Source: Dudresnaya verticillata
Lineage: Eukaryota
DNA: 64,000 bases
Direction of reading: 5' to 3'
Assembly: GCA_977862235.1 (NCBI GenBank)
Contig: OZ374563.1
Span: 186,001-250,000 of the forward strand
Of the stretch, positions 1 through 22,713 are shown piece after piece. Every line of letters begins with the position of its first letter. Within the stretch, counting starts at the first letter, position 1. Below the pieces are notes generated by a model. It saw only the letters and a program-made list of their open reading frames with translations. It had not been told where the DNA came from and did not search any database. Both the position numbers and the translations under genes were made by a program.

Positions 1-729
1 TATTGGTTGCAGTGGAAAGGATAGGACGAGGTGACTTGGAAGGTTTTTCCTTTCGCGTTCAGTCCTGGACAGGAAGTATGCTTCCTGCGGTAGACAGGAA
101 GTATGCTTCCTCTCTACGAGATACAGTGGAACAATACATTTTCCTCCGCGATTGTCACAATAAAATAGCTCATTTGTGTTGACTTGGTTATACCCGCGCA
201 GATATCCGTTGCTAGTGAATTGTTAACACACTACAACAATTGCGGAAGTTGGTATGGTAGCAACCGGAGTTCTCGTGCTATGTTTTCAGCTTTCGTCGGA
301 CTTCGCATACCTTGCAGTTCATCCCTTTGCGAGGGATCCGATATAGCTGCAGGATTAGACCAGAGGATGAGAAAGTGGTATGTGCAGAAGATGAGGAGGA
401 TGTCTGATGGCCTCGAAGATATTGTGTACGTAATATGAGTTGATATCCATGGACAGTGGAAACCAAAACCAATATTGAAATAAGATCATATCCGAGCTGC
501 ATGTGGGCATGAATGCAATATTTTCCAACCGGGTAGGAGATCTGAGGTTGATCTTTCTTGACAAACTCTGCCGCGGCACGTCGCGACTTTATTACCAGCT
601 CCTCGGATTTCTTTGTCAAGTGGACAACGTTTTACTAGGCTCGCCATGCCCAGGAGGGTTCCTGGTCTTCCAAAGCGCGCTGGTGTTGTAAAGGGGATGA
701 AGTAGAAGTGGAGACGTTACCGACGTGGA

Positions 730-3700
730 GTGGAAGATGAAATTTTGCTAGGAGTGTCATCTTCACGAGAACAGGATACTGCTGAGAATGGCCGTCATCA
801 GACATCCCAATTGTTTCCTGGGGGAGATATGAGCACACCTATTCCTCATAGAACCGATAATGCAGTTGCAGGGCTGCTTTTCATGGATGATGAGGGGCCA
901 TTTCTCCACGGTACTCATGAGCTGCAGCTGGAATGTTCATATGTCCTGTAAGTACCACAGGTGCTTTTGGGGATCGACCAGGAGCTCTGGATACATTAAG
1001 TCAAGAACAGGAGCCCCATTTCAGAGATCCCTTACGACAAGACGATGAGGGCCAGCAGCAGACGATAGATCGGCAAAATAGACCTCTTGTCGTGGAATAC
1101 GATGCACACAATGAGGAAGAAATAGATGGGTTTGTCATGGAAACCACAGCGCCGCCGCAGCGATGCAGAGGGGAACCGGAAGGAGGGATAGAAGAGCGGG
1201 ATGAGGAGGAAGCCATTCGTGAGGGAATACCGCAATCCGGGGCCCCAGGGTTGACTCAGGATCTCATCGAACATCCAGAAAGTATGAACACAGGTCAAAA
1301 TGACGATCGAAAGGAAGGGGGTATCGACAGTTGGCAAAAGCTCGTCCCAGTATTGTTGGTGAACGGTAGTGTCAAGTACACGAAGCTTCAGTTTGTGGTT
1401 TTTTCATCTCTGTGCAACTTCTTCAATGGGAATAGTGTATCATCATGGAGGAGATTAATCTTACCCTCGTCAGGAGACAGTCATGTGGAGGCATCAGGGC
1501 AGCGGTTTTACCCGTTCAGGAACGAACGTTCAGGAAGGTTTTCGAGTTTGAACCAGGAAGGGAAAGATTTAAAAGTCTTTCCGTGCTCTCGCACTGTGAA
1601 AGACGTACATGCCACATATCTAAGGAACAATCTCACCTGTAGGGGAATCATCGAGAGACACAAGATCAGGCACAGTGCTCCTGTTGTATCTTCGCGTTGC
1701 CTTAGGGGTGGAGATTTCGGATATGCAAGTCTCAGAATTGTCGTTGTGAGCGAGTATGCCAGAATGGATCTATCCTGCGGTCCAGTTTATAGAGCTATGC
1801 TGTCGACGAGCTCGGAAAGGTGCAGAGCCAATTCACACAACAGCTATGCTCCCGGTAGGGCTGGCAGTGCGGACTGCAGCCATGGACACACTGAAAACTT
1901 CCCTGGTGTGAGGCCGTGGGATTTTTATTGATTACTGGCCCCTTGTTGCTGCCCGCAAATATTTCTACGGAGGTCCCAGAACCGTGTGTCTGGATTGGGA
2001 CCAACGTATTAATCCATATGAAGGTGTTCAGGAAACATTTAATCGCAGGCTGGAGCCAGGAGATACAGTCAGACTCAGTTTGTTCGGGCAAGGAAAGCCT
2101 CCGGAACGAATATTGTCAATGTTCTCTATTTCTGACGGCCGCGGACAGGACGAGAGCGAGGATGGACCTTTTTTGTTCGGTACTGTAGCGGTTATATGGG
2201 ATGCTACTTACCACGCATCGGATCATCCGCTTCATACTGAAAATGCTCGAGTTGGAGACATTTCTAATTATGAGATGTCTGTGGTGAATTCATTGCACGC
2301 CAAGCCTCCTGATCTATATAACCACGAGAAAACAGTGAAGGTAGGTGATAATTTAATGATGCTACGGCCACCACACGGGAGCCATAGGAGTGAACGAGGC
2401 CATGTTATCGTTGGATACCGTTTTTTATCCAAGAAGGGGAGACCTCTAGGTATTGCTTCTTTGTTGATGGATGTGGATCCAGAGATGTCTAGGAACAAAG
2501 AAACGCCGTAAACGTCTCACTATCAAGCCGCATACAAAGCCTGGACAACCTTACTGTTCTTCCACGACGAGTGCAACGGGATTCTCAATCTAGAAACAAT
2601 CGTTCTCAAATAAGTCTAAGACCTGTAACCGAAGTCAAACTATTTCGTGCACACGGTGGTAGGAGAGATCTTTCCTCGACGAAACCCATTCCTAGTTCAG
2701 GAGAACTTCCTGATGGAAGCAGGTATTTCATTTACCGCTTCCTGCTTTTCTGGGACGGTTTCCGTATATCAGATGGAAAACAGGCCAGTGGGGAAGGCGT
2801 TTACATGATTCCGCTAAACCTTCCTCCCTCCTATCGAAATACAAGCTCTGCAGTGAGAATTTTGTGCGTTACACCTCCCGGGGTGAGCCCAAATGTTGTA
2901 TTCGCTGCGTTGTGGAAAGTTATATTGAAGGGAACAACGGAAGGGTTTCTTGACTACAACGCGAATGGTCAAGCTGTGAAAATATTCCTGGACCATGTCG
3001 GTTCAATTGGTGATACCCCGGCTATCAATGCTGCAACGGATTGCATGGGACAATGTGCAGATTCCTGCTGCCATTTGTGCAGATTTCGCACAGCAGCAGT
3101 CCAGGAAATAGACACGGGCAGAGAGAAGTACCAAACAAAAACGAGATATCTTAATACTGAGACTCATTCAATGAGCTCAGATGCGAATAGAACCATGAGC
3201 AGACATCAGGGTCTGAGAGACTGCGATGTCGATAAGGAAGTGTTTAGGTTTTTGGGAATGAAGGCAAGCGGCAAGGAAGGAATATGTCCCATTCACGATA
3301 TTTCACGTTCTCTGTCGCAGATACAGGACCCAGTGCCGAAACTATCGGATGGCCGCCCCCTGTTGCCGGCTATCATGGACCCGTACATGGGGGTGTTGGT
3401 GGCTCCTGACCATCTATTGTGTGGGCATGCGCGTGATTGCATTAATTCTGCAGTACGGCTTCTCCCGTCTCCGTTGTTCAGGAAAGCTTTCGAGACTGCG
3501 GCCCTTTCTATCATGAGTGATATACGTCTTCAAGGTCAAAATTCCCTGTTGGATTCATCAGGAACTTTGCACACTATGACTCTCAGTGAGGTGTACACGT
3601 TGCTTTATGTATCTTCTCCGTCATTTGAGATTTCGAAGAACATGGTAAGGACGAACAGGTTTCCTGCCGTTCATGCCTCGGATGGTACAGGAAGGCCACA

Positions 3701-5150
3701 AAGATCTCAGGAGGTGTCCAAAAGATGCGAAATCGCTTTCAAGGTTGTTGAATCGTTCTCAAAAGTCGTAACAGAGCTATGGTACTGGCCCCGCGAAGGT
3801 ATTGATGGTTTGGAGGAATTGAAGTATTTTAGCGCTAACAATGGGAACACCCGGATTGAAAGACTAGAACAATTAATTGAAGAACATATCGATGAGGTGA
3901 TGTTGTTGTGCACATTTAGCTCACACATGGTATCCAAACTAAGATCTATAATAGGGCAACGAGGCTCTACTGCTGTGAACAGGAGATCTGCTCTTATCCG
4001 GGACTTGAAGGAAGCTTGTCAGGCGAGGGCGTTCCTGGACTGCCCTAATATGCATCGCCTGAAGGAACTATCAGTAGTGCTACTGCCAATGGTAGGGGAT
4101 ATTGGAAGAGGTTCGGAACTGGTTTTTGAGAGAGCGCATCAAGCCATGAAGCGGGCAATGCAAAGGTCGAACCACATAATCCCACATATTGATGCCATGA
4201 ATGCAGCACAAGTTAATGATTGGAAGGGTCGGTTGAGAATGCTAATCAAAGAGCTCGACTCTCCTCACGCGGATGAAGTGCGTAGTGCATACCTAGGAAT
4301 TATAAGGTTGGTTTGTGGAAGAGAAGAAATTTCAGAAAGAGATGGGAAGCTTCTAAGAGATGATGTCAACTTCGTTCATCGTGTTATCGGCCCGAAGGGC
4401 ACCGTGGATAAGATAATCGAGATAGAAGGGCGGGATGTAATGAACACTGCTACATTGTACACATCTGAAGTTTCCTGGGAGCTTGATAATCCGAAGTGGA
4501 CTGTAACATGCCCATATTCCATCACTTCCGAGGCAGATGTCTCTTCGGCCAACTGTATAGAGTCACAGAAAGAAATGGGACAGGAAACGGTAGATATTCT
4601 ACATGGAACAGGAGGTACAAGATCAGGAACGAGGGTGAGGATGCTTGGATTCAAGGATTATGACATATATATTGGTGACGTCATCCAAGTGCTTTCTTAA
4701 CAAGGAAACGCTCGTCCTGTTTGCTGGCCATATGTTTTGACAGGAAAACCGGACGGAAGGTTTAGCTCTGGAAGTAGTTCTGAACAGGAGCGGGGGCACC
4801 AGGAAGTAACGTTTTGGTGGGTATTGTCATTGTTCAGCGCAGGAAACAATGTCGGTGCCCTTGTTCTCCCATGCAAAATCGCATCTCCTGGCTCGACTGA
4901 AGATCATGTAGAGAATGAGACTCAGTTGGATACGTGCTCATCTCCTCCGTATGAAATCAAAGTACCTGAGAAAGGACCATCCGTACTGATTTTGACACAA
5001 TTCTGTAGGCGTGTCGGGGTAGTTCACTTCTGTGGGGATGGATGCGGTCCTGCCGAGGGAAAAGAACTTGTGCAACATGACAGACACCTGCTGGAATCCC
5101 AGTTCTTCATTTACGACCGCAGAGCTGGATTCCCTCCACATAAGGGGTAA
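730..5150 (+). pseudogene. Degenerate CACTA/EnSpm (CMC/Plavaka-like) DDE transposase gene split by frameshifts and stops
   Basis: Consecutive + ORFs (730-951, 933-1931, 1984-2511, 2571-4700, 4737-5150). The 709-aa ORF has LFWDGF..SGEGVYMIPLNLP..R, IGDTPA, CHLC, APDHLLCGH, PNMHRL and ELVFERAH, the motif order of CMC transposases. 4737-5150 continues in frame after the TAA at 4698-4700. The true 5' start is uncertain. Confidence 0.7.
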
Positions 5151-5574
5151 GTTACGTGCTGTTCAAAATATGTAGAGAATGAAAGAACGTGTGCTACTCT
5201 TGTACACCCTTAAGGGTAGCAGAAACGCATTTATACCTCTATTGTCAGCGGAAGTAAGTAGCTTTCGGAACCTTGTGCTTTACTCATGAATGGAGAAAAT
5301 GGTGGTCAATGTATGAGCTTTGCGATGAGGAGGATAGAAAGTTCTGGCCCGGGCCCCTGATCGCAGAGCTAACAGCTGTTAAGAGCGTCTCCTGACAACT
5401 GTGAGAGTGGCGTATTGCATACCAGAGCCCCGCTGTAACAGGAACTAGCAGCTGCTCAAACGTGTTCCAACCCTGGACAGGAGATCATTTAATTTTGATT
5501 GCTACGCAATTGACTGGAAGCAAATGAAAAGCGAATGTTTATCATAGGAAAGACCCCTAAGCCAATGAGATACA

Positions 5575-6348
5575 CTATTTGTCGGAAGAGAGCTCTTCCT
5601 GGTCCGTCACGTCCGGGCCGCCCAGAATGATGCGGTGTGCTCCAAGTTGAGCGTTGTGCCAAAGAACGTCCATAACGGAAAAGCCAGCAACGGGGCGGTT
5701 TCCATGTGATGGTGAGCTCAGGAGCATAATCGGTCCCGAAAATGAACCTAAAGATGTCAAGAGAAGAATAAGGAAGGGCATTGCAATCTCACAGGAATCC
5801 AATACAAATATAGAAGTGAACATTTCAAAGGCCCTCCTTCTATCTCCGGAAGGACGTAGACACGACGTGAGGATATGTGCACTGATTTCTTCCATGAGAT
5901 GTGGAAATGATTCCATATCACATATCACGACATGGCACTCAGAGAGGTCCAACTCTGGATCAATGCAGTTTGGTTTCCAAGCCGTTGCGCTACGGCTTCC
6001 AGTTCCAGATCGCGACACCCACTCCGCAGTATTGAAAACATTCAGTGAAGCACTGGTACCATCGGCGGAGAAAAGCTCAACCATTCTTAACTCTCCTGCG
6101 AGATCAGCTGCGCTTTCCTGAGTGGAGGTGATGAGAAGACTAGTCATGCAGGCTTTCCTATCCGACGATTGGCATCCATTTTGGATATCCTTCCCAGCAT
6201 TGCCACACCGCTTTTCTAGCTCCCATTGCAGTAATTCCTCGCTCGCAGTAGCGGAATGGTATCCAAGTAACGTCCTTCCTGTCGGGAAGCCACAGAGCAT
6301 GCAAATAGTAGATCTGATGATCCGAACACTTTCAGTCGGAAGAATCAT
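5575..6348 (-). CDS. Hypothetical protein, possibly a degenerate DEAD-box-like RecA domain
   Basis: 257-aa ORF. LLITSTQESAADL, HVVICD, IFVLDSCE and MLLSSP fall in the order of SF2 motifs Ia, Ib, II and III; no Walker A. Confidence 0.35.
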   Translation of the reverse strand: MILPTESVRIIRSTICMLCGFPTGRTLLGYHSATASEELLQWELEKRCGNAGKDIQNGCQSSDRKACMTSLLITSTQESAADLAGELRMVELFSADGTSASLNVFNTAEWVSRSGTGSRSATAWKPNCIDPELDLSECHVVICDMESFPHLMEEISAHILTSCLRPSGDRRRAFEMFTSIFVLDSCEIAMPFLILLLTSLGSFSGPIMLLSSPSHGNRPVAGFSVMDVLWHNAQLGAHRIILGGPDVTDQEELSSDK

Positions 6349-6711
6349 CTGCGATAAATATCAAGCTAAAAAATTGAAGCTGGGACGCATGCGTCTCAAG
6401 CTGGAAAACATTTTCAATTGGAGTGGTCTTTGGGCAGTATATACTGGTGATATACTATAGTATCTTAAAATTGTAAATCACTACGTTGCTGTGTACATGT
6501 TGCAACAAATTTTCGCTTGGACGCATGCGTCTCAAGCTCCAACGCCCTTGAACTGGAGGACGCCCACAGCCTGCGTGTTAAGCTCGAAGGCATTTTCCAA
6601 TCGAAAGATGTCCCATTGGCAAGCTTATGGGAAGCACGTAAAGTACTTGTTTACTTCAAAAGATCATACGAGGCAAAAGATCATACGAGACATCGCAACG
6701 CGTATACGTAT

Positions 6712-8067
6712 CTACGCATCAACTCCACTGCTATGGTCATCCGCAGAATCTTCGGAATCGGAATCCGACGAGTTGCGAACATCCGCTGACTTCCTCCGAT
6801 CTTCGGCAGTAACTGGAGTCGTTCTCGGCGCCTTTTTGCCTCGCTGGGACGCATGCGTCTCACGCTTCTCAGCATTTCCTTGGGAAGACTCCTGATCAGA
6901 TATACTACGGGTGTCCCTTTCAGGCACGTCCAGGAAGGAAATATCTTCTTCCCAGAATTCGTTGGAGTCATCCCTGCAGACGAACGGATTCGCATTCGCA
7001 GCGCGTAGCTGGTCTGAAACTTTGTAGAAATCCGGAAGAACCCTCAACCTTTCCATATAATGCCAAGATCTGATTTTAGAAACCTTCTCCTCTTGCTTAC
7101 GACGAGCTTCACGAGCGAGACGGTTTTCCTTCTTCAGCAAGGCCTTCGCTTCGACGTACTCGCTGACCAAGTCCTCTAGATTCGGAACTTTTTCGAACTC
7201 CTCGATAATCGGAGACGAAGGTGGCGAGTAGGCTTTGTTCTTGTTCGTATGAGCAGGCAGGACCGTCCAAAACAGCATACGAGAGCCTTGCACGCGTATC
7301 TGCGAGGGCATGTCCACAGAGAAAGCGCTTCTCGGTAATATCGTGATGTCACCGGTATGCATCTTGAACTTCCTCTCGCCCTCTTCATAAGCAGACGCAA
7401 GAGACATAACTTCCGTTATATGCTCGAACATCTCCCCATCTTCATCGCTGTCTGCCTCGCTCGTTAGCGTACGAATTGCACCCCAGCCAGTTGTGACGTA
7501 CGAGAAATCCATGTTGCGCGCAGTTGGAACGGGGCACGCGTCAACGCTGCCTCCTAAGTACCAGAAAACGTAGTAGTCCATTTCCCTCTCGTCGTTAATC
7601 CGGCTTCCAGTATAGAACTTAGAATCGAACCCATACTGAGCTGGGGTTAGCAGAGACGGAGTAGAGCAGCACATCTTCTTCTTGGTGATCGCCGTTAACA
7701 TCTCGGCACTTCTGCACATGACATGGGACAGGGAAGCTTCCTTCGGGGGGTAGTGTAGGGCGATGAACCACTCTGCGTCCGGACCATGGCTAAGCGGAGT
7801 GCTGTGCGTTGTCCTCTTGGCCTTGTTGTACGTGCACATGCTGTCCCACTCCTCCACCGTTCCCCACACCCCGTCCCAGTTGCAGCTCACGTCCGGGATG
7901 CATAGGGCCGCTGCCGCATGGTTGTGCTTGAGGCAGTCCCTCATGGATTTCCAACCCCCATATGCGTAGATAGGGACATCACTCAGAGGGTGATCGTAGC
8001 CGATTGCACGCAAAGTCTTGAAGTTTGGAGCCGGAGCTCCCTTGGTTTTCTTCTTCGAGGACGACAT
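6712..8067 (-). CDS. Hypothetical transposon-associated protein (451 aa)
   Basis: Long uninterrupted ATG-initiated ORF with a globular N-terminus, a charged coiled-coil and an acidic tail; no family recognised. Confidence 0.6.
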   Translation of the reverse strand: MSSSKKKTKGAPAPNFKTLRAIGYDHPLSDVPIYAYGGWKSMRDCLKHNHAAAALCIPDVSCNWDGVWGTVEEWDSMCTYNKAKRTTHSTPLSHGPDAEWFIALHYPPKEASLSHVMCRSAEMLTAITKKKMCCSTPSLLTPAQYGFDSKFYTGSRINDEREMDYYVFWYLGGSVDACPVPTARNMDFSYVTTGWGAIRTLTSEADSDEDGEMFEHITEVMSLASAYEEGERKFKMHTGDITILPRSAFSVDMPSQIRVQGSRMLFWTVLPAHTNKNKAYSPPSSPIIEEFEKVPNLEDLVSEYVEAKALLKKENRLAREARRKQEEKVSKIRSWHYMERLRVLPDFYKVSDQLRAANANPFVCRDDSNEFWEEDISFLDVPERDTRSISDQESSQGNAEKRETHASQRGKKAPRTTPVTAEDRRKSADVRNSSDSDSEDSADDHSSGVDA

Positions 8068-9061
8068 ACGGAGCAGCTGTTGATGAGAAGAAAGCAGAAA
8101 GTGAAAGACAACGAGTGAAGTTCCTGAACGTAGATGATGACAACGCGCTTGACTGAAAATGTGGAGTCGAACCGCGCGCGGCGATCTATTTGGGGGGCTT
8201 TGTATACCCTACGGATGTTTGGGAGTAGTGGGGTTTGGAGCTTCGTATCACCTCGAGGACCGTGGGCCAAGTAACGTCAGCCAGTTTCTTGGGCCATTGC
8301 AGACACTCTGGAATATGCGTCTGAATCAAACGGCCGTTTCAACGGTCTGAAATTATACAAGAGATTGTCCCAGCCCACTGTCGCGCATGAAGTATCATTA
8401 CAGTTTTATTAGGGTGCGGCCAATCTGTTCCATGAATTTACAGCTATGACAAATACGAATACTAAATCTGTACGACGCACGCGTCGCAGCATACAGGCCT
8501 GTGGCCCGGGCCTGAAGACGCTCTAGATCTCGCCCGCGCACGCGCACGGGGCACGCAACTCGCATGCAACAGTATTTTGGAAATCATTAAAGAACCCCAA
8601 CGTCGACTCAGTTCCTGCCACGCTAGCGTCCAGCTGCAGCTTCAGAGCTGACGTGCTGCATACCACCACCGGTAAACCTCCCCCACACACACGCGTCTGC
8701 TCCTTGTAGCACACTCGTGCACTAGTGTACTGTCCAGCTGGCGCACACACTTGCGACATGGACCCACGCCGCTACCGAAGATGGACTTGGGCTGCGGCGT
8801 ACACTAGTCGTCTTAGGAATCAGGTGCTAGGAGATGACACGTTCAGCAGTGACGAAGAAGAGGAGCAAGTGGATCTACAAGAGGAAGACCAAGGCGGCCA
8901 AGTCTGCCAATCAGGAAGGCGTGTTCCGCTCGCGGGAGCGCGACCGTCGAGGGATACGACGCTTAACGACGGTGAAGAAGACAGGACTGTGATCCGCAGC
9001 CACGAGGTGCAGGGCACCCAAGTTCGCACGCGGGCACCCACGGATCTGACCATTTCGCGTC

Positions 9062-9108
9062 GTGTTCTCCTGCCGGGATTCATTGCGTGAATCCCGGCAG
9101 GAGAACAC
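9062..9108. repeat. Perfect 21-bp inverted repeat (hairpin, 5-nt loop)
   Basis: GTGTTCTCCTGCCGGGATTCA-ttgcg-TGAATCCCGGCAGGAGAACAC. Confidence 0.95.
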
Positions 9109-9169
9109 CCACCTGAACGGCAACCATCATCATGCGGTGGTGCGCGACGCAAGGGATAGACGTCAAGAG

Positions 9170-9487
9170 ACGGAGACTCCGGCGGCAACTGCAGCTGCGA
9201 CGCATGCGTCCCAATCCAACGGCGCGCCCGTCGTAGGGCGCCCCCAGTCTCCATGGGTGGCGGAGATAGCGGCGGCAACTGCAGCTGGGACGCATGCGTC
9301 CCAAGCAAACGGCACGCCCGTCGTGGGGCGCCCCCAGTCTCGACGGGTGGCGGAGACAGCGGCGGCAACTGCAGCTGGGACGCATGCGTCCCAAGCCAAC
9401 GGCGCGCCCGTCGTGGGGCGGCGCCAGTCGCGAGAGGTGGGGGAGGCAGCGGCGGCACCTGAAGCTGCGACGAATGCGTCCCAAGCC
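9170..9487 (+). repeat. 90-bp tandem repeat, about 3.5 copies (30-aa coding repeat)
   Basis: GGCGGCAACTGCAGCTGGGACGCATGCGTCCCAAG... recurs with period 90 (palindrome cores at 9199, 9289, 9379, 9469). Confidence 0.9.
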
Positions 9488-11032
9488 CTCGCGGTGGCCC
9501 TGTATTGGAATGTCCATGAGAACTGTTCTAATACTATTGTCGCAGACATTATCGACAGCATGTTGACGACGATAGTTATGAAGGCCGCGGGAGGTTTGGT
9601 GCAGGGCACTGGAGATATTGGGAAACCTACAGGTGTGGGAGAGGAAACGCCTGCATCCTTGGGACTCTTCCAAAGAAGCCATGACCCTAAAGGGGTAAAG
9701 AGAAGTGGGAACCCGGATGGCCCGGAACCACCGACCAAGAAGCCCAGATCGGACGCAATCGTAGCGGGACAGAGCAGCGTGAAACGGTTGTGCGAAGTTC
9801 TTCCGATGCAGGATGCAGTTCCGGGCCTAACCACCTCGGAACGTAAATTCGCGGCCATGAGGAGGAACATACGAGACGGGGGATTCATTGTGCGCTATAG
9901 TGAATTGCAGGTGTTTTGAAGGAGGACTACTATGGTCAACGACGAGTTCCTGAACTTATTCGTTCGAGCCATCAATCGCCGCAATTTTGAGAGTTGTAAG
10001 CGTCCAGACGGTCGCAAAAGGTCTTTCATTTTCACATCTTTCCTACTTCCCGCACTGGTGATATCTTCGAGGAAGTGCAATGGCAACGCGTATACACTTT
10101 CGAGTAAGTGGTTTGGAAATCAAGTATCGGAAAGCTATGGAAGGGAGTTTGTTATGGCTGACTTCGAGATTCTGATGATGCCCTTACACCTGGGTGGCGA
10201 TCATTGGGCCCTTCTCATCGCTAATTCTTCTCGTCGCTGTGTTCAAGTGTACGACTCACTGCAAACCACAATGAACAACCAAACCAGGGATGCAGTGCAA
10301 CTTTTTAAGAGCTACATATCAGGGGAGGACTCTAATACAAGGCACAGGAGGCGACTTACTCCTTGGACAGGGATCATGGAGTGGCCGACGCATCAGGATC
10401 AGTCCCTTCCAAGACAGGACGACGCCTACTCCTGTGGAATTTTCGTCATGTTTGTAGCCCATTACATTGAGAGGGGTTGCTGCCCCAAGTTTGGGGTGGA
10501 AAACATTACTGTTCTGCGAAGTAGAGCGGTAGCTATAGTGCAAGGTGTCGACATTTCGAAATAAATGCCCCAATGTCTTTGATGACCGATGCTAGCACCG
10601 TTAACCAAAGCTTTGACTGCCTAGCCCTTATCGGCTGATAACTTAATATATGCAATTGAATGGGCATTTGCGTTTGTTCAATAAGCAATTTGCTCGACGT
10701 TTTCATAGCTAAGGCTCGTTCCATGCACGCATGCATGTATAACTGCGCGGTTCTTTGTGGGAGGCATGCGTCCTAGCAATATACATGCAGGACATCGTAC
10801 ATCGATGTGTGTCGTGCGGAGTGGGACGCATATGCGTATATGCCGTATGCATGTGCCTTCACTTATCCGATCCTATAGCGATGACTGTATTTTGAAGTAG
10901 TTATTGTGCGAAGATATCACATTGAGGTAAACGGAATCTTTATTTTCGACATACTGGTTCCAGCTGGGCACGTGCACTACAATTATAGTACTACAAACTA
11001 GTGTGTCTTTTGTGCACACATCTTTCCAACCA

Positions 11033-14000
11033 TTATTGCTCAGCAGCAGTAGCATTTAAATTGGGACAACAAGTACAAGTAAGACGAAGGCATCCGAAGT
11101 AGCACCATTCCACATCACAGTCAGACAAAAGCCGGGCTCGGTTTTCGAATACAGATGTTTGCTTTGCCCGTGCACGAATGTTCCCTATGATGAAATGGAA
11201 AGAGAGTAGTGCAACGTAAAAGTGACATCCTGAGTTTCTAAGAGATCTGCAAAGAAGCTTGATCCCTCTGTTTCTCTGCTCATGAGAAACTGTATTTGCC
11301 AGATCCAACTCCTTATGCGAAGAAGGTATAAAGGATGGGGAGCAACCCGTATGGTTTGAGGCATGGAACTTATCTGACACAATAACTGTGTTCTGAATTC
11401 CCGACCATAATGTGTGAACAGCACTTGCATAAAGACCACAAGCAAAGTCATAGATGATGTATCGCGGGAATCTGGCAAACTTGGAAGCAATCATGTCCAA
11501 AACAACTTTTGGCCCTTCGTCACGGAAGAGAACCTTGAACCCGAGAACGACTGGATTGGAGCACGAACAAGACATCGTCATAGCTCCTGGCGTGTAGTCT
11601 TTCTGTTTCTGATAAAATGTCTTCGAGCACGGACCTAACTTCTCTCTGTTGCTGTAACTCCAATCCTCAGTGTCAAACGGAAACGGTCTGACTTGGGGTC
11701 GCCCTGGAAAATAGTTGCCAGTTACAACTGCGCAGCGAACAGTGTCTGATTCGTTCATCTTGTGTTCGATTGCCAAGTTCGCGCCATACTTCTCATTCAC
11801 CTTGGACAGAAGAGCTCCCTTGTCTGTAATACTTAATTCCTGGCAGAACTTCAGTGCCGTGAACTTCCTTGTTACTGACGATATGCCCGCTGCGACTCTC
11901 GAGGATGCATTTTCATACGATTTGTAGAACGTATCGATGCATTCTGCAGATGATGCGTAAAACTTCCCAAGTGCTTCACGTGCTGCAAAACCTGCTTCAG
12001 GTTTCCCTCTGCGTCGCGTTCCATCACAGTCACTGTAAAAATAGCTGCTCGAATAAATCTATTCGTCCTCACCACTTTGCTTTCATTTCTTGTTGGAACT
12101 ATCCCGTGCATAAATTGCACAAAGGGGCTAATGTCTTGGTTCAGACACATGCGTCCCATTCCAGAAAGTGACAGTAATTCTTCTCTTCTGATACACTGTG
12201 TCAGCGGTCCTTGAAGAACAATATGGAACAACCGGAAGATCTCATTTCTTCTGTCTCTATGGTAAGCGGTTGTACCTTGCCGAAAGGTTTCCGTCCAGCA
12301 TGTTCCTGAACGAACAATTGTACTCAAGAGCGGGCCTTCTAGATGTTCCAAAGTTTCTGAAACAGCCAACAGAACGTTTTCTGTCCTGGACTTCTTTGGA
12401 TTTGGCTCCTCCGGGAAAAAGGACGATGTCTCGCTCGAGATCTCGCTTCCAGACACATAGACACCCGCCCTTACTAGGAAGTCCTTGTCCCTATTCCTCA
12501 GAAATTGCATCAATGAGCGCAACGGTTGTAGTAGTCGATAAATCATACTGTCTGTATGGAACAAGGCATTTGGAAAGCTCCCGTATAGATTGCAGCCATG
12601 TGTTTGAACCTATGTCATTGAAGTAGTCGTTGGGTGCATTTCCGCATATAGAAGCCGGGTAGAAATGTGTAGGCAGCAAATCGGGTGAGAGTATACGAAT
12701 AGTTTGAACGAAATCCTCTATGTTTTGTTTTGTGCAAATGATGTCTTCTCCTTTTGCCGCTCCCAAAAGGATTTTGGGGACTCCAGTCCTTCTGATTAAA
12801 GAAGTCATCGGCTTTCGATGCAATTTCCCACGACCCACTTGAGACGCACGCGTCCCAGACCGATTTAGGAGAGGCTCGCAAGACTCAGAAATGTTCCGTA
12901 TCGGGAGCTGCAGTCTGCGTTTGTATCCTTGCTGAATCCCATCCACGCAAATTATTCGAAGTTCACGACTGGGACCCTCGCATCGCGAGCAAGTGAAAAG
13001 GGATTCAACAGAGTTCATAGTCATTAGTCGTAACATTAATCAACATAGTTTGCGAAGGGTTCGCACAGAACGGCACTGCGGAATGACTGGTAGTAACCCA
13101 AACTGCTGGAGCGATATTACTTGTGAATGAAAGTGTGAGAGCCGTCCACTTAAAGTCCCATTAGACAGTGCCACACCAGTTAGCTCCCGTCTCAGAAAGG
13201 CGTGCGTTGCTGCAGACGTCCCAGTGTCCAGAAGAATACAGTTTTCTCTGCCTTCTGGTTGGATTTTCGCGTCACAATCTTCAGAACTGCATTTGAATAC
13301 CTCCATCCTCATTTCACACGGGCCAATACTGCACATTACTATGCCTTCCTCGCTCAGTTCCCTCGTCTTGGGGTCTCGGGGAGATCTGCACTTCTGACAT
13401 ATGTTGGGAGCTTGTACAATATACTTCTCTCGTCGCTGCGCTGCAAGGGCGACTGCATTGCCGACATGCAGTGCTCTAGAGCAATTGACAGGGGCCAAGG
13501 GAAGGTGTGAAATGTGTTGTGCCGATTCTGATTCCTCCTTCTCCATATCATCTTGATCCTCTTCTCGGTTTTCATCAGTATCCAATAGGTTACTGTGGTC
13601 CACGGCGATGCTAGTATGTTCACAACCCCCTCTATGCAAAGTGTCACAAAACGCGCAAGCAAAAAACTTTCCCTTGTTAATAACCCTGACGGGCACAAAG
13701 TATAACCATCCTTTCTCTCCCAGAAGACAGGAGGTTAAAAGCACCCTTCCATTGTGCATTAATACGGCCTTCGGACATGACATTTTGTATGCAGAAAAGC
13801 TCACTTCACTTCTATTCTCATACAATTCGGCAACTGCTCGAGCTGTCGTCTTCGTAGAAACACTGTATAGAGAAGAGACCTTCTCAATGAATGAAATAAT
13901 TCCTTTAATATGAATGCATTGTACCTTGTCAATATTTCCATGCAGTACAGTTTGGGACGCATGCGTCTCTCCTCGTTCTTGTTCGGATTGTGCATGGGCC

Positions 14001-14956
14001 GAATGAGACTCATGCGTCCCAGTCCCCGACGTACCATCCAGATCCCTCCGCGATGAATTCGGCGAGGCTTGGTGTGCCCCGCCCATCCCGTCCTCATGCT
14101 CAGATGGACTTGCTTCTTTGTCCACGATGTCGATTTCGTCTATTAGAATTCTGAACGAAGTTATTCCAATGCAGGTGCAGAACAGTTCCCCTTGCCGTGA
14201 TATCCATGTCACAACTGCGTGCTTGTCCATGCCCTTTCCGCCCTCTGCAGCAACTTCTGAATGTGCCAATTTCGTACTAATAACAGGGTGTGGGCAGTTC
14301 GGAAGGATCTCATGTGGCCCAAATGTCTTCGTACTGGTTTTAAGGACATCACGAATAATATCCGAGAACTTCTTTAAACGTTCCCGTCGCTCATCTGGAT
14401 CACTATTATCTACACCACTCAACGGGACTAAATGTGAATCGAGCTCCTTGCAGAGATCCAAGTCATTGCCTCCGCATGCTGCGCAAAGTGTCCTAACCAG
14501 TACTTCTGGAATTTTTCGTTCCATTGCCCTCCGCCTCTGCGCTGGTGTCCCAGCATAGCGACGCCCGCCACGGTCGTGCGAAGTTCCAGGCCGGGCTTGG
14601 CGTTCAACACGGAAGTTATTTGCGTTGCAAGCAGTTCCATGATCAGATTCCTCCGTACTATGAATCACTTCGCCGTTATTTTCTTGGACCAGAGAAGTAT
14701 TTCCCTCACTCAGCCGACAAAACGCAGGATCTTGACCTTCATACATTCTCATTACTGACCATATATCTCGCAGCCCGAACTGAACTTCTTCTGGGACATT
14801 TGATATTCCTGCTTCCGTATCAATTTCATTCCATACCGTATTGCTTCCCACTTCTCCTTCTTGCAGCAACGAATGCACTTGGTGCAATTCTTGCTCAGAC
14901 CACTCAGACATTCCCCCACCTCCCAATGTCATGGAGTGTATCTCGCTAAGAACCAC
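11033..14956 (-). pseudogene. KDZ (Kyakuja-Dileera-Zisupton) transposase with SWIM/CxC-like Cys-His motifs, disrupted
   Basis: The C-terminal ORF has GAMTMSCSC..VLGF...EGP, IIYDFACGL, SDKFHASNHTGC and NTVSHEQRN (KDZ core). Upstream pieces have FTCSRC..IICVDG, LFCTC...CIH and CAFC..CEH. There is an in-frame TGA at 13040-13042 and frameshifts near 12.5 kb and 11.85 kb. Confidence 0.75.
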
Positions 14957-15615
14957 ACTTCGAAATTGCTAATGTTGTAGATTCAGAACAACAGCCCACA
15001 ACCGCAGTTCTTGGATGGGCACAAAGAAGTACACCTGTGAGCTCGAGCTCACAGATATCTCAGCTCTCGGTATTTATTTGCAGTTCTCGTCGCACTACCC
15101 ATGGAGGATGATTGGAATGCCTCGCAGACTCTGTAACGGTATGCCATTCGGGCAATTGTAATATTCTTATATCGAGAGGGGTGTACTGCATCCTCATTTG
15201 GATACAACCAATAAAATTATTTATTTGGGCCCAAGCTTCCCACATTTCTGCCAATCAATTACCGCCACTGATTGGGACGCGTGCGTCCTATAATACCAAT
15301 TTTTGTATGAGACTATATGAAGCACTGTACGACTGGTACCACCTTGTTCTGCTACAAGGAAGCGTCCCACGAATGGCGTACGCATGCATCCCGGTTTTAG
15401 CCCGGCGAAAGCTGTGATATTTTGATATTTTGATTCCTGAACATATCATTTGGTGCCGTAACAGCCTCTCGCGAGCCATAAATTCCCGCGAGACTGAAAC
15501 GAACCGAAACACCTAGAAGGTTTCAGCCAGATTGCCGCGTTATTCCCCGTAGTACCGTGTGGTGCGCACTTCTCACTCGTTGCCCCACACGCTTCTTCAC
15601 TTCTTGAGCACAGAA

Positions 15616-17081
15616 ATGGGCACTCAACTCGATAACGTGCAGAGAAGAGCATTTCAGTCCTTCCGCACTGGGCGATCGCTGGCCATCCTCGGCGGTGCCG
15701 GTAGCGGCAAGTCCTTTCTACTGCACGAAATTATTGATCACGCAACGAAAGCGGTTGGGGACTACCCGAACATTGCCGTATGCGCTTTCACGAACAGGGC
15801 GGCAAAAAGTTTGAACGGGAGAACCATTCACTCCCTCTTTGCTGCCCCAGTGAGTTGGCCTTTTCAAGTGGATAAGCTCCTCGAAGAAACTGCGAAGACT
15901 GCGGGCGCTGTTACTACACTTCGACAAATTCAAGTCCTCATCATCGATGAAATAACACACTTGACCGCAGGAATACTTGACAGCATAGATGGGGTTCTGA
16001 GGGAGCTTTCATCTTCCAGAAATTCTTCCCTCCCTTTCGGGGGACGTCAAGTAATTCTAGCAGGGGACCCGTTCCAACTCGAGGCGATCCCACAAAGGCA
16101 TGGAACATCAGAAGAGAATATGCAAGTGTTTCATGCTCGCTCCTGGTTCCTTAGCTTCGGGGGATTTGGAACGGGTGCTGTGGCGATTCTTTCGGGTAAC
16201 CACAGGCAGGCTGGTGATCAGGAGTACTTCGATCTTCTTGAGAGAGTGCGCTGCGGAACATTCAGCGATGAGGACGTCAACAAATTAACAGAACAAGTGT
16301 TGGGATATCTTCGCCTCCGTCACACTACACAAGACTTTGCTTGGAGAATAATGAAGTGGACACGATAAACGAAACATATCTGGCTAAGAATCGCAATCCT
16401 TCCTTCTATCATAGAGCTGAGGACAAATTTCACACTGCCCAGCATGGTGGAGTTCACTCCAACTGCATAAGGGTTCTGGATTCAATGGCCCGAAGGGTCA
16501 TCCACGTAAAAGTCGGGGCCATTGTTCTCACTACTATGAAAACGGGTGCGTTGCTTCCCGGCTCTCGGGGTACAATATGCGGAATTGTAACAAATGCTCA
16601 TGACACGAGTGCTATTTCGGCATTGAAGTTGAGAACTGATGACGACACAATTCACACAATGTCTCCTCGCCTGTTCTCAAGTCGAAACAGAAAAGCAGAA
16701 GTAATCGCTACGCGGAGGCAGTTCGCTATCGTCCCTGCTTATGCTACAACGATTCACAGAGCTCAAGGACTCACCCTCTCGAGAGTGGCTGTTTCATTCA
16801 AGGATATTAACAGATGGAAACCGTTTGGGATGGTATACGTGGCATTGTCAAGATGCACGTCTCTTCAAGGTGTGTGGGCATCAGGGTTAACTAGAGCACA
16901 CATTATTGTAAGCCCGCAAGCAAGGTACTGCTGCACAAGAATTTCGAAGCTGCGAAAATATTATCCTTCTCGAGTAATAGAGGACATGAGTACGTCTAAC
17001 ACTGAATCCTACATTACTGAAAAGAAGAGGGTCCGTGGAAGCGCTCACGCCGACTTTCCGGACGCTTCTGTGCCAAGGTGA
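15616..17081 (+). pseudogene. Pif1-like SF1B DNA helicase, frameshifted near 16.3 kb
   Basis: GGAGSGKS, GRTIHS, LIIDEIT, PFGGRQVILAGDPFQL and NHRQ in the first ORF; AYATTIHRAQGLTL and YVALSR in the second ORF. Confidence 0.85.
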
Positions 17082-17605
17082 CGTACGGTATAAGTGGAAT
17101 CTGTTCCTTTGGCGCGCTTAATGCACGTGCATAGTGGTAGGAAGGCACCAGCAGCAGATTATATGCACGTATAGAATACCTGTCCCACAGAAGTATATAA
17201 GAAATATAATTCCGCAAATATGCAGCAATTAATGTTTTAATCTAAGAAAAATAAATCTCATTTTTTCTGAGACGCACGCGTCTCTGACTGATAAAACTAT
17301 AATTTTCTTACTGAGACTCACGCGTCTCAGAGCACAAAAATAAAAAGTAATTTTTCTCAGACGCACGCGTCTCTGACTGACACCGTGACGCGGCGTGTAT
17401 ATGGTGCTATGTCCAGAACGTCATAATTGTATCCCATTGTGAAAGAGTGGGGCGCATGAGGTTTAAAGAGACGTGTGCGTCGCACTGTTTCCATCTTAAT
17501 GACAAATCAACCTTTATACTCATTATTTCGACTTCCTTTTCAAACCTACAGTTCATTCCGAACGAGTGAGGCGCATGCGTCCTAGGTACTCGCAACTATT
17601 GAAAA

Positions 17606-19392
17606 TCAACCTGTTGACTGAATGCATTCAATCCGACTTTTGTGCCAGAGAAAAGCCTGGAAAGGAGGAAGACCCGTAACTAGTTTCGGCACTCTTTGAC
17701 CTGAAAAGTGCAGAGTTCTCATATCCTTCAATTCTCTCGACTTATACCATTCAAAGTAGGGGTACTTAATGTCTTCAAGGTAACCGTCGTCGTCAACCTC
17801 GCCAAGATCAAAGTGGAAATCAGCCAGGAGAACTGCTCCAGTAACATGAAGGGAACCGGGTTCAAAACGCGTTTTCACATTCACTTTCACACCTTTCCAG
17901 TCAACAAGAATCGCGGTCCCGATATCCAAATATTCTCCCTTCACCCTAACCCTCCCAAGACTGTTCTTCGGCCATGACACAGGACGGCAAAGGAGGCTGT
18001 CCATGCTCGGATTTTCTTCGTGTGCACTCCACGTCCCAGAAAAAGAGGTGAGATCGTGTCCCTCTGTTATGGAGCAGAACCGAAGTGATATATTTCCGGA
18101 AGGAACAGGTCGGCCCAGGACGTGTGTTTGGAACGGGTCAACTCTTCCAGTCCCAAGCTTCATTACTCGCAAATTGTCTTGGAAAATATTGCAAGTTGCA
18201 GTTGGCTTCTCAGGACAGTTCCGAGGACAAACTGAGCAGCCTTCTCTATCGTATCCAGAGAGCGCAATGTCCCTTCAAATCTTACTCACTGCGATATGTC
18301 TCGGATTCTTCTGGAGAAGAATTGAGAGGAGAGCGTAGTGAACATCTCGTCCATTTCTGCTCACATTGCTGATCTGTAACGTCACAGAGTGAGAACCGTT
18401 AACTTGAAATGGGCGACCATTCAAGCCCTTCCTCAGTGTCAACCGTGAGAAGGACACTTTTTCCCACGAACATCGTTCGGGACAATGCTGTTGTACTTAA
18501 TTCCAGAAGTCCTTTGTCCGTCATCTTTCATTTTCTTCTTTGCTGCTTCAAACATGGCAGATACAGCCTGGTTGAGGACTGTTTTCAGTATGAGATCGAA
18601 ACTGTCGACGTCAGTACTCCGTTGCCGAGAACGACAACCAGCTGCGCTAAGCATCAGAGAAAGGCATCTTGCTGCGTCCTGATCCCGAATGTGGAACGTT
18701 GAAGAATTAGACTGGACAGCGTTTCGATCGGGTTGCACTCGGCCTATTTAGTTTCGCATAGTTGCGTCACCAACCCGGATTATACCCGGTTGATCGGTAC
18801 TAGTTCCATCAAGAATGTAAAGAATAGCCCGATCTGCGATATTTCGTTGAACAGCGCTTCTTCTCACGCCAGGAAGAATATTTGGGGTCTCGATAAGAGA
18901 CGCACGCGTCCGAAGTTGGTTTTCGACCACGTTCGGGCCCCAAAGAACGACGATGTTTTGGCTGTCCTGGCTTTGGTTGTTGTCCTTACCGCATGACTTT
19001 GCACTGAGGAGCAGTGATATTTTTCCAGCTCGCGGATCAGTGTTAATGACGTATTGAACGAACTGTGCGTTGCGGCGCATATTTTCCAATGCAGACGTCA
19101 CCAAACTGCGTTCTCTGCATTGTACGGACCCGTATATCGTGTCCACACTGTGCTCAAGACTGTTGTTAGTTCGACGCATAGTGAAGATGACAGTTATTCG
19201 CAGTTGCCGTGGGTAGGAGAAGGATGGACATGAAAGGGACAGAGATATTTGAGATCGGGTACTTATTGTTTCAAGTAGGAGAGGGGTGCATCCAATAACC
19301 AGAGGTACACTTTGACATGTAAACGTGTACCTCTCTACCCGGTGTACCCCGTCTCTGCCAATGAAAATCGCGAACGGGGTAGAGAGGTACAT
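17606..19392 (-). pseudogene. Fragmented hypothetical ORF series of the mobile island
   Basis: Adjacent minus-strand ORFs (18748-19392, 18439-18738, 18275-18457, 17606-18172) with a Cys cluster between the last two; no family recognised. Confidence 0.35.
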
Positions 19393-20378
19393 TTTTCAGC
19401 TTTTCAGCTCAAAATGCACCTCTGCTGTTATGAAAAATGTGCATTGCCGATGAGTAGTTTTGCTGTCCTGATTAACGAAGTACTCCTCCCCGTAACGGCT
19501 GTTTATACTGAGACCGGCTTGTAGCTCGCATTTCGGTTCGAGTCGAAACAATAGAATGCACTACGGGACTCTTCAATACTACCGAAGGATGGTCCCTTTT
19601 AGTTGTGGGACGCACGCGTCGTACTAAGCTAGTTTCGAATATGAATAAGTGCTTCGTACAGTTACAAAGGTTGTGTTTACTTGTTCGATACTCTATACCG
19701 TTCATGAATGCCTTTAAGTACAAGGCTGCATAGTTTACTGGGCAAAGGAGGAGTGCCACGGAGAAGATAACTCTAAAATATGCAATATGTCTATGTCTCT
19801 AAACATTCTCTTCGATCTTAAAGTCGGCTGTGCCTGTTTCGCGTGGGTGGCCTTCAACGGTCAACAATCGTACAGGCGTCATCGGTTCTGAACGTCTCGT
19901 TTACAGTGGCCTTTTTGCTATTTTCAAAGCGCTGTACTGGAGAACGGCGACGGCAGTCAGTATGGGTCTCGTAATGCCGTGGCGGGCCCTCTCAGGCCTC
20001 TCGGTTCTGCCGCCGCGTTACAATTACCGCAATTACTCGCCGTGGCGTAACGCGTAACGCTCCTGCCCTCACCGCCGCCGCAGACGTTCCATAGCCACCA
20101 CGTGTTCCGCCAACTCCACACACGCGCTCCTTCCACTCCTACACTAGCGCGGTACACCGTATACCCCATCTACCCCAAAAACTCCCGCCCAAATGTACCC
20201 CTACTATTTCCCACGTTCATTGACCCCGGAGAAGTTCGTCACTCCGCAATGCAATTGGCCGCCTAAAGCACGCCATCGTCATGTCACCCAATAGTGAGCC
20301 GAACTTTATGCTACCACGGCGCGTGGCGTTACCCAATGTTATGACAACACTTGGCGAGTCCCGAGTTGCAATTCCCGT

Positions 20379-20914
20379 AGAATGAGAAATAACTCAAGCC
20401 ATGATGCTTCCCGCAGATGGACGCATCTGCGTGGCAGAGTCGGAGTCGGCCAAAAATAAGGCCTAAATTTTGCAGCATGCACGATTCTTGCGTCAACCCG
20501 CTGACCTGTCCCGATCAAAAGCTGATCGTTCGATACTGATCTGCAATCCCTCCGAGTCCATATTCGCCTTGGAAAAGGCCTCCTACAGTTAAACTATCCA
20601 TTGCACCAATCCCACGTTTGACTCCCGGGCTCGGTGTCGGCCTGCTCAGGCAGAGCCCCCGTAATCGACCGAGGCCCACATTGCAACCGAGCAGCAGCCT
20701 TCTTGCTGCCGCTTGCCGACAGCAAGCTTGAGGGCGTGTGTTTCATGTAGCTGTCACAGCATCCGTGCTAATGTATGTGCAATTTCATAGGCGGGCCCCC
20801 GCCGTATCACGCAACAGGCAGACCGTTGATGGCTGTCAGCCTGTGGGTTATGTAGTACAAAGTCAAGTTCAAGCTCTATGAAAATTTCAACCTTTGCTTC
20901 CAAAGTGGTGGATA
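20379..20914 (+). repeat. Left arm of a ~540-bp diverged inverted repeat
   Basis: Reverse complement of 22714-23264, e.g. GATGCTTCCCGCAGATGGACGCATCTGC, AAATAAGGCCTAAA and AAGCTCTATGAAAATTTCA. Confidence 0.9.
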
Positions 20915-21809
20915 CTGGCATCGGAACAACAAAGTTTTCTGAAAGCAGAAATAGAGACAAAGATGTTGTGTGCTCAGCAGAGAGGAACAACCGGGCAGTA
21001 TCGATTTCGGTGGCTTTGAACAGAGGACGGCAGGCCCTATCGGTTTACTGTTAGCGATACGATTATAGGACGATAAGGTAGAATAAGTACGATATAGTGC
21101 TACTCGTTCTTTTGCGCTGTAGCGCGCTGCCGATGCGAAGGTTGAGAAAAGTGGGACATACAAAGCCGGCAACCGAGTCCAAGGCGAAAGAAACTTGTTA
21201 AAGATACAGATCATGGAACACCTGCTCCTTGCGGTACAATCGAGCGCAACGTGCTCGGTGTGCAGCGCCAGCATTCCTTTTGGTACCCGGGCAGCTCTGC
21301 CGTTTAGTGATTTTCGAGTGACCGGCGTCCCAATCGTGCATTACTGGCGTGTCACGCAAGCTGTTTCCCCGCGCGGCGTTTTGCAAGACTGCGTGCACAA
21401 TATATCGGTTGGCTCTAATGCATGGGCTCGTTCGTCGCACAGCTTACCAATAAACGGTTTATCCAAACGGTGCAGAATGCAGACAAAGTACATCACACGC
21501 ATCGTACTAACGTATTATCGGAAGGGCCTGCGGTCCTTCTCCAAGAAGAAAACGTTTCGACTCGATGAGGCCAGTCGCCGAATAGAGGAATTCATTACTG
21601 AGAACCGGTACAACGGGGGCTATGCTGGCAGGCACGGTTACAAGCTGCATTACTAAACGATGTTCACTCGACTTCAAGCTGCTTTCAACACTTTCTGACC
21701 ATCCCCTTTTCTAAACAGATATTCTTACAACGCATTCTTTCCCACCAGGCGTGACGCCACCAACACTGGAGAATGTGCGCAATTTTCGTATATGCTGTCG
21801 CCACCAAGT

Positions 21810-22604: not shown

Positions 22605-22713
22605 GGCGTTGTGGGTCAGATGAGAACGGCAGTGTGCAGTTGCTTGCGAAAGGTGCGACGGCAGGCTACACAAACAAAACGAATCGCATGTGCAAATCGA
22701 GGTCAAGAGGTCT

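Follow-up and report, generated by a model that had tools for sequence, protein, structure and literature searches.

A decayed Zisupton-type giant transposon with a Pif1 helicase gene and a private palindrome, probably separate from the CMC transposon beside it in Dudresnaya verticillata

Do the transposon genes crowded into the first 20 kb of this stretch of Dudresnaya verticillata contig OZ374563.1 (64,000 nucleotides, hereafter the window) belong to one giant element with two unrelated transposases, or to two elements that lie side by side or one within the other? An initial annotation had recognized there a CMC-type transposase, a KDZ transposase, a Ulp1 protease, a Pif1 helicase and several orphan genes, a gene set that is borne out by Pfam searches, homolog alignments and profile matches. 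Our analysis indicates that 1-20341 is probably occupied by two separate elements, part of a CMC transposon and a KDZ giant, and not by one. The main finding is the latter, a helicase-bearing, multi-gene transposon of Zisupton type with a private palindrome; the appearance of a giant with two transposases is probably a matter of adjacency or nesting. The features of the KDZ element are the following (window coordinates; bp, base pairs; aa, amino acids).

5400..20341, unstranded: decayed Zisupton-type KDZ giant DNA transposon, 14,942 bp, as proposed from gene set, ends and palindrome confinement
5393..5399 (+): TGACAAC, probable target-site duplication on the left side, a perfect 7-mer, or 8 bp if one mismatch is allowed
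20342..20348 (+): TGACAAC again, the probable right-hand partner of 5393-5399
20324..20341 (-): probable right terminus, reading inward TAACATTGGGTAACGCCA, which matches the end motif of GC-rich KDZ-Pif1 relatives
5575..6348 (-): orphan C, 257 aa, open frame, a palindrome lying 36 bp before its ATG
6712..8067 (-): orphan A, 451 aa, open frame, predicted PhyH-like 2-oxoglutarate/Fe(II) oxygenase fold
8758..10564 (+): stand-alone Ulp1/C48 SUMO-protease gene, broken (Peptidase_C48 E 6e-17 at 9920-10561)
11033..14932 (-): Zisupton-type KDZ DDE transposase gene, about 1300 aa, broken, delimited by alignment to the intact relative P0013
15616..17081 (+): stand-alone Pif1-family helicase gene (PIF1 E 5e-21), without Rep domain
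17606..19392 (-): orphan B, one gene of about 550-600 aa, broken by two stops and one frame change, start uncertain
6384..19620, unstranded: 21 dispersed copies of the palindrome GACGCRYGCGTC, inside the proposed KDZ element
17271..17581, unstranded: cluster of five palindromes in AT-rich spacers between the 3' ends of Pif1 and orphan B

The evidence for a multi-gene element comes from relatives collected by scanning a metagenome collection with the KDZ C-terminus only, which returned 43 loci: seven AT-rich and close, 22 GC-rich and 14 more distant, at least two of the last bearing CxC4. A Pif1 gene lies beside the KDZ gene in 17 of the 43 loci (4/7 AT-rich, 13/22 GC-rich and 0/14 distant). 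Algal-clade loci lacking Pif1 are mostly short or end near the transposase, and four Pif1-less loci of the distant group extend over 8-20 kb. The Ulp1 gene is present in L002 and L003, with a fragment in L022, orphan A in L002 and L006, and orphan B in L002, L005 and L006. These accessory genes share 22-50% identity with those of the window, and at least three arrangements are seen, namely Pif1-B-KDZ-A-Ulp1 in L002 (Pif1-B-KDZ-A in L006), B-KDZ-X-Pif1-Ulp1 in the overlapping L005 and L003, and C-A-Ulp1-KDZ-Pif1-B in the window; Pif1, Ulp1, A and B are thus found beside KDZ, but in shuffled order. Phylogenetic trees constructed with FastTree group the window with L001 and L003 for Pif1 (support 0.83) and likewise for KDZ (0.93), and both keep the GC-rich families apart. 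Since divergent relatives also contain Pif1, Ulp1 and two of the orphans, the designation of multi-gene giant transposon holds for the 14.9-kb part of the locus. Of the nested-elements alternative considered in the initial annotation, separate or nested elements thus stands, but simple nesting of known families does not, the KDZ element being itself a giant with these recurring genes. The CMC gene is found in none of the 43 KDZ loci, either by tblastn or by profile search, most of their contigs being short; this absence, together with the best-supported ends, which exclude the CMC gene, speaks against the one-giant reading.

Those ends were defined with the help of the GC-rich relatives, whose terminus, beginning with GAGTGTGGGTAATGCCAGGG, is set by the comparison of L012 with L014 and L015, sequences that are shared only from one base on. 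The core of this end motif is common to the junction of L012, L014, L015 and L017, and the far end of L009 carries it in inverted form. Thirty candidate duplications of at least 7 bp have one copy between the CMC stop and orphan C and the other between the last palindrome and the element that follows; in comparison with the terminus of the relatives, TGACAAC ranks first (12/18, with a null frequency of 0.0011 per position, or about 0.03 over the 30 pairs). The left end of the window element resembles the GAG-type end of the relatives. No clear terminal inverted repeat is seen between the two ends of the element in the window; the GC-rich relatives carry a short inverted core a few bases in, as judged from two different families. 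The ends of the KDZ element are most likely 5400 and 20341. The former falls within the 5.2-6.3 kb where a boundary had been suspected from the start, and the latter moves the right limit beyond the 19900 first assigned. The KDZ element most likely adjoins the CMC transposon or sits inside it, in its 3' arm or just after it.

The distribution of the palindrome follows the same boundary. GACGCRYGCGTC has 23 matches with at most one mismatch in the window against 0.97 expected, a number that none of 100 shuffles reaches, and the consensus extends to 18 bp, TGRGACGCRYGCGTCYCA. No site lies in 1-6383, consistent with the early remark that the palindrome is absent from the CMC gene, and only two one-mismatch matches occur in the other 44 kb of the window. 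Within the element, 11 of the 21 copies are in spacers, which make up 26% of its length (p 0.008). Every spacer holds at least one copy except the 175 bp at the left end, including each of the six that contain a gene start or lie between genes. The remaining copies are in frame inside genes, four of them in the 90-bp tandem repeat of the Ulp1 gene. All palindromes are internal, none lying less than 700 bp from either element end. In L005, three GACGC-N4-GCGTC sites are found downstream of gene B, matching the place of the window cluster.

The KDZ gene is interrupted by one stop (13040-13042) and by two frame changes near 12570 and 11980, and its pieces show 39-61% identity to the full-length, intact relative P0013 of 1316 aa. 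The motifs CVDG, IYDFACG, DKFH..H and SHEQRN, with the D, D and E residues, are present. The window pieces have no direct Pfam match, and Pfam KDZ is matched weakly (E 8e-5) by P0009, one of six aligned relatives. Profile comparison aligns its catalytic part with CxC4-KDZ proteins of fungi (probability 98.7, E 2e-16), which places the transposase, on sequence homology to the KDZ catalytic domain, among the KDZ enzymes. Its Cys cluster matches the fungal CxC4 region weakly with hhalign (E 6e-4, probability 29), none of the six aligned KDZ members matches Pfam CxC4 or SWIM, and SWIM-like C-C..C-H motifs are seen by eye; the nearest named relative is a SWIM/CxC4 protein. Since SWIM, CxC4 and KDZ together form the canonical Zisupton architecture (according to the available text of 10.1101/2024.08.15.608186), we call the transposase Zisupton-type. 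A first reading as Kyakuja was dropped for this reason and for want of CA..TG ends: the 5'-CA..TG-3' termini of Kyakuja are not found here, the proposed ends being TG..TA and the defined end of the relatives beginning with GAG, and the sole CA..TG pair among 118 duplications sits on the palindromes themselves.

The Pif1 gene, of about 490 aa, has a PIF1 match (E 5e-21) at 15553-16365 and a C-terminal helicase piece at 16272-17078, separated by one frame change near 16280; the corresponding frame in L003 is open over 507 aa. A HUH Rep fused to or beside Pif1, as expected of Helitrons, is not found, in agreement with the initial annotation: there is no Rep match in Pfam, and Helitron HUH motif patterns are absent from the six frames of 1-24000. 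The Ulp1 gene has a frame change near 9070 and a stop at 9917-9919, and its low-complexity N-terminus contains 3.5 copies of a 90-bp tandem repeat (9171-9487), each with a palindrome. Of the four profiles proposed at the outset, Peptidase_C48 and PIF1 are matched, whereas KDZ and Transposase_21 have no direct match in the window and weak ones in relatives, and Plavaka has none in either. The comparable light decay first described is light, but not even: the CMC, Ulp1, KDZ, Pif1 and orphan B genes carry one to three or more breaks each, and orphans A and C are open. With four of its six genes broken, the transposase included, this KDZ copy is dead. A look-up of 6200-16000 among sequencing runs listed none, which has no bearing on its expression.

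Orphan A has 47 homologs by profile search. An AlphaFold2 model of its residues 1-366 built from 49 sequences reaches a predicted local distance difference test score (pLDDT) of 81, against 32 from three sequences only, and has no separate N-terminal domain. Foldseek gives 244 matches at E<=0.001 with 2-oxoglutarate oxygenases at the top, and VIA gives Z 12.3 with a root-mean-square deviation of 3.6 over 206 aligned residues, with PHYHD1 (2opw) at Z 10.7. The top rows of both searches are nearly all 2-oxoglutarate oxygenases, so that a double-stranded beta-helix fold is predicted; a "PARP-like" Atlas lead (score 0.83) was rejected after the fold search. The His-x-Asp/Glu...His triad of the active enzymes is not found: the best His column holds His in 15 of 33 sequences, and the presumed triad positions, assigned by pattern and not by residue-level superposition, read W/F/R-x-D and D, with G at the Asp column in the window copy. 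The iron triad thus appears lost from the aligned sequences and, because no alignment column holds a conserved His, the modelled protein is likely a non-catalytic binder. The two frames 18439-19395 and 17606-18274 are halves of one broken gene, orphan B, both matching single regions of L002, L005 and L006, so the orphans, first counted as three or four, are three. Orphan B has no family or PDB match of weight, and sequence searches with orphans B and C give chance-level matches only, including one at E 0.033 to an EspK/GogB model (cut-off 977 bits).

The relatives show further features of their own. In L003 an extra gene of 170 aa (1759-2268), common to L001, has no counterpart in the window, and an array of imperfect repeats of about 60-70 bp, probably subterminal, occupies 6444-6581 and 8537-9133. 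In L002 a nested element with inverted ends of about 100 bp and the remains of a SWIM-bearing Mutator-like gene lies between Pif1 and gene B (525-1589). A non-coding stretch of 104 bp, 81% alike, is found inverted at opposite ends of L002 (10200-10303) and L006 (1362-1465) and may be a subterminal repeat. The third gene of the GC-rich families codes for 570-770 aa and stands tail to tail with Pif1 (L009 9143-11263, L019 8431-10734 and L012 10859-12571, all on the minus strand); it has no Pfam, PHROG or real NCBIfam match and none to the window orphans. A 90-bp tandem array separates KDZ and Pif1 in these families (L009 3913-5054; L012 5779-7483 and copies). The window element likewise has an array of 90-bp period, in its Ulp1 gene.

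The part of the window to the left of the KDZ element comprises the following features.

1..5392 (+): part of a probably separate CMC (EnSpm/Plavaka-like) DNA transposon, on transposase homology, position outside the duplication and absence from the 43 KDZ loci
646..5150 (+): CMC-type DDE transposase gene, broken, start uncertain
72-85 and 97-110, unstranded: two copies of GGAAGTATGCTTCC, a near-palindrome like the motif of the KDZ element, in the CMC part

The CMC gene has frame changes near 1920 and between 2200 and 2600 and a stop at 4698-4700, and aligns with six homologs at 31-43% identity. The alignment contains FWDG, GDTPA, CCHLC, PDHLLCGH and ELVFE, corresponding to D, D, C(2)C, H(4)H and E; CCHLC and PDHLLCGH between GDTPA and ELVFE, kept in the homologs, constitute the CMC/CMCT signature as defined in the available part of PMC12730594. 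The window protein has no direct Pfam match, Transposase_21 is matched weakly (E 0.001) by one of the six homologs (P0002), and the Plavaka domain of Pfam by neither the window protein nor any of the six. This gene may itself belong to a giant red-algal Plavaka-type element. The transposon probably extends leftward beyond the window, and its ends, which in Plavaka would read TGT..ACA or CATCA..TGATG with a duplication of 2-3 bp, were not found. GGAAGTATGCTTCC differs by three mismatches from the palindrome of the KDZ element with its flanks and may be a putative binding site of the CMC element's own. An apparent CpG deficit of the CMC part (observed/expected 0.78 versus 0.97) disappears on comparison with GpC (p 0.51). 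Upstream of the gene, an open frame of 117 codons (278-631, minus strand) has no family match of weight and is possibly the end of an accessory gene, of which no continuation can be recognized. No protein relatives of the CMC or KDZ transposases were found in the viral contigs searched.

To the right of the KDZ element, a third element at 20379-23264 has terminal inverted repeats of about 550 bp that are 85% alike, and no transposase. One of its open frames (about 22604-21810, minus strand) has a signal-peptide-like start, Cys-rich ends and a Ser-Pro-Ser-Ala repeat, and a second (21123-21656, plus strand) is without family assignment; a target-site duplication was looked for and not found. From its sequence it looks like a Pack-type non-autonomous element with a secreted-protein gene. 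The right 40 kb of the window hold ordinary, nearly intron-free eukaryotic genes in a Pfam search of the window proteins, including histone deacetylase, triosephosphate isomerase, ClpP, dynamin, lipoxygenase and E2F/DP, and E2F-like and DP-like winged-helix genes lie there within about 8 kb (50296-52251, minus; 56714-58333, plus). The style of these genes, taken with what is published on similar elements, suggests a red seaweed as host.

Several points weigh against a self-contained KDZ giant with these ends and this palindrome. The trees derive from partial, query-anchored alignments, with rows of fewer than 140 or 150 aligned residues dropped, and many GC-rich loci are near-identical re-assemblies, so that the independent families number about seven. 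The GC-rich relatives have their different third gene, and Ulp1, A and B were not found in them. The absence of CMC is judged from KDZ-anchored loci and not from the neighborhood of the CMC gene itself; the contigs of the AT-rich relatives are 3-13 kb long and none has both ends, so that a CMC gene could lie further out. Regarding the ends, both they and the duplication come from one locus and one decayed copy, there being no second copy of the family to compare, and the perfect duplication is of 7 bp versus the 8 bp reported for Zisupton. The pattern AACAN{1,2}GGGTAAYGCCA has one match in the window, none in 100 shuffles and one among the 43 loci (L009), but was written after both sequences had been seen, the pre-set score alone giving about 0.03. 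A rival duplication, AAATATG, with 5-bp inverted ends TAGAG..CTCTA, would delimit 5173-19775; this pair was set aside for its lack of the relatives' end motif (7/18 or less). The exact palindrome is absent from the AT-rich close relatives: a different one recurs five times in L005 and L003, marginally so (4 of 100 nulls reach it), and in L002 and L006 no family-private palindrome rises beyond chance. Finally, orphan C is absent from the 43 loci, and searches found no relatives of it, with no Pfam, PHROG or Atlas match and only chance-level ones in PDB and NCBIfam, and no ParB-like or other DNA-binding domain was detected in orphan B or C.

Weighing these points with the gene content, its recurrence beside divergent KDZ genes, the absence of CMC there and the confinement of the palindrome, all of which are observed, we give a probability of about 0.72 to the reading that 5400-20341 is one decayed Zisupton-type cut-and-paste transposon, in which Pif1 would aid the refilling of donor sites while the protease, the oxygenase-fold protein and the palindromes would act against silencing. 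Its DDE transposase would cut at short, offset terminal motifs and insert with a staggered cut, excision and reinsertion by such an enzyme being established for KDZ elements (available text of 10.1101/2024.08.15.608186). The donor gap of 15 kb would then be refilled from a sister copy, raising the number of elements, and Pif1 would assist this repair so that excision gains copies. In yeast, long-tract repair synthesis is driven by Pif1, a helicase of 5'-3' polarity, and for this reason a role in donor repair is favored over copying out or a passenger status; by this analogy we propose tentatively, at slightly less than even odds, that Pif1 aids gap repair from the sister copy. Ulp1 would strip SUMO from chromatin or repair proteins at the element, a removal for and against which we judge the chances equal. 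An element protein, either the transposase through its zinc clusters or orphan B or C, would bind the palindrome at the element's promoters in the manner of VANC, and we regard such a putative self-binding site, again by analogy, as rather probable. Ulp1, the oxygenase-fold protein and the promoter palindromes would then form a kit for self-recognition and anti-silencing, to be compared with VANDAL/VANC and with the proposal made for PAG3. A bolder version appears doubtful to us: an old lineage of algal Zisupton-like giants in which Pif1 became obligatory for amplification by self-copying and a family-private 18-bp palindrome at each promoter is bound by the element's own protein, which recruits the SUMO protease and a dead oxygenase-fold reader against host silencing, as a red-algal analog of VANDAL/VANC.

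Among the alternatives, the one that survives best concerns the palindrome, which might be an end-recognition site of the transposase or a site for a host transcription factor, with no link to anti-silencing. The lack of a detected DNA-binding domain in B and C, the missing iron ligands of orphan A and a CpG content that, relative to GpC, does not differ from that of the neighboring element (p 0.51) would suit this explanation; we consider it unlikely, however, since the sites are internal, keep at least 700 bp away from the ends, occur in each promoter-side spacer and have just the two one-mismatch matches in the remaining 44 kb. It is less likely still that Pif1, Ulp1 and the orphans are passengers without a role in KDZ movement, either a roving accessory cassette or Helitron remnants. 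Gene order and orientation do vary between families, the 47 homologs of orphan A may have other neighbors, and transfer of accessory genes from one red-algal transposon family to another is reported (10.1101/2025.02.11.637652, available text); yet the Pif1 and KDZ trees group alike, no Rep remnant is seen, and these four genes reappear, with 22-50% identity, in as many as three AT-rich families. Equally improbable is replicative movement, with Pif1 unwinding from a nicked end, the element being copied out and the DDE enzyme serving as integrase. It could draw on the retention of Pif1 with the KDZ clade across three deep lineages and on ends that are short and asymmetric in their first bases. 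However, the element lacks any gene for a Rep, a polymerase or a primase, Pif1 is missing from the fungal-type CxC4 relatives (0/14), so that this family of transposases can do without it, and a duplication from a staggered cut fits ordinary cut-and-paste equally well. Least probable of all is one giant of at least 20 kb that uses or stably carries both transposases, including a KDZ insertion fixed in a still-moving CMC family: the two parts are similar in their light decay and GC content (47% and 49%), a look-alike palindrome occurs twice in the CMC part and fixed nested insertions are described in still-transposing giants of Ectocarpus (available part of PMC12477816), but CMC is missing from all 43 KDZ loci, the duplication and the relative-like end motif leave its gene outside, and 1-6383 is devoid of GACGCRYGCGTC.

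As a rule, cut-and-paste transposons rely on the host for DNA repair and for gain in copies. The retention of Pif1 across deeply diverged KDZ families makes it testable whether such giants need a helicase for restoration or copying, and implies that a repeat with a stand-alone Pif1 need not be a Helitron. The promoter palindrome offers a concrete candidate site and may extend sequence-specific anti-silencing beyond the plant VANDAL elements. The two-transposase reading, which would be the more surprising one if true, is probably mere adjacency.

How, then, does a single Zisupton-type giant compare with known systems? A link to Ulp1, seen in the window element, also exists for Zisupton in fish. 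With KDZx1 of Cryptococcus deneoformans, the Zisupton described in the available text of 10.1101/2024.08.15.608186, the window element has in common a DDE transposase of some 1300 aa whose KDZ domain follows SWIM-like and CxC4-like Cys clusters, extra open reading frames, apparently weak or absent terminal inverted repeats and a likely duplication of 7-8 bp. It differs from this system in the strong divergence of its transposase (no Pfam CxC4 match, a KDZ match in one of six), in having stand-alone Pif1 and Ulp1 genes, an oxygenase-fold gene and 21 internal palindromes, and in its perfect duplication of 7 instead of 8 bp. Fungal Kyakuja, Dileera and Zisupton elements carrying TET/JBP (PMC12730594, available part) similarly combine a KDZ transposase with a passenger of 2-oxoglutarate-oxygenase fold, and Kyakuja has 7-bp duplications and no terminal inverted repeats (same source); here, however, the passenger is PhyH-like and likely inactive, the ends are not CA..TG, and a helicase and a protease are present.

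The giant Plavaka elements of red algae (PAG1-3; available text of 10.1101/2025.02.11.637652) resemble the window element in their size of 15-19 kb, their several accessory genes and palindrome arrays beside an accessory gene, and also in a 2-oxoglutarate-oxygenase-like gene: PHYHD1 (2opw, Z 10.7), a structural neighbor of orphan A, is the reported best match of PAG3, the two proteins being compared here by description and not by sequence. According to the same text, PAG2 and PAG3 occur with Zisupton in Bangiophyceae. PAG3 joins an N-terminal ParB-like domain to its 2-oxoglutarate-oxygenase domain, and the model of orphan A shows no such separate domain. Unlike these giants, the window element has a KDZ and not a CMC transposase and possesses Pif1 and Ulp1 (the main text has no mention of 'helicase' or 'Ulp1'), it has neither a methylase-SET gene nor a detected ParB domain, and its orphan A is short and without conserved His. 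No published description of a KDZ-Pif1 pairing was found in a search that fell short of most subscription journals and Repbase, and helicase-bearing Zisupton-type families may already be deposited in Repbase or in Supplemental Table 6 of 10.1101/2025.02.11.637652.

A Pif1-family helicase is shared with Helitrons, in which it is fused to Rep, whereas the window element has no HUH Rep motif, a stand-alone helicase of about 490 aa, a DDE transposase and a likely target-site duplication. VANDAL elements of the MuDR type with their VANC proteins (PMC5735166, available part) belong to another transposase superfamily, no VANC homolog is seen here and the palindrome is known from the DNA sequence alone; the likeness lies in family-specific, short non-coding motifs that are partly multiplied in tandem and differ between related families. 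In brown, green and red algae, giants of the KDZ and EnSpm types that carry accessory genes and nested insertions have been described (available parts of PMC12477816 and PMC6431247).

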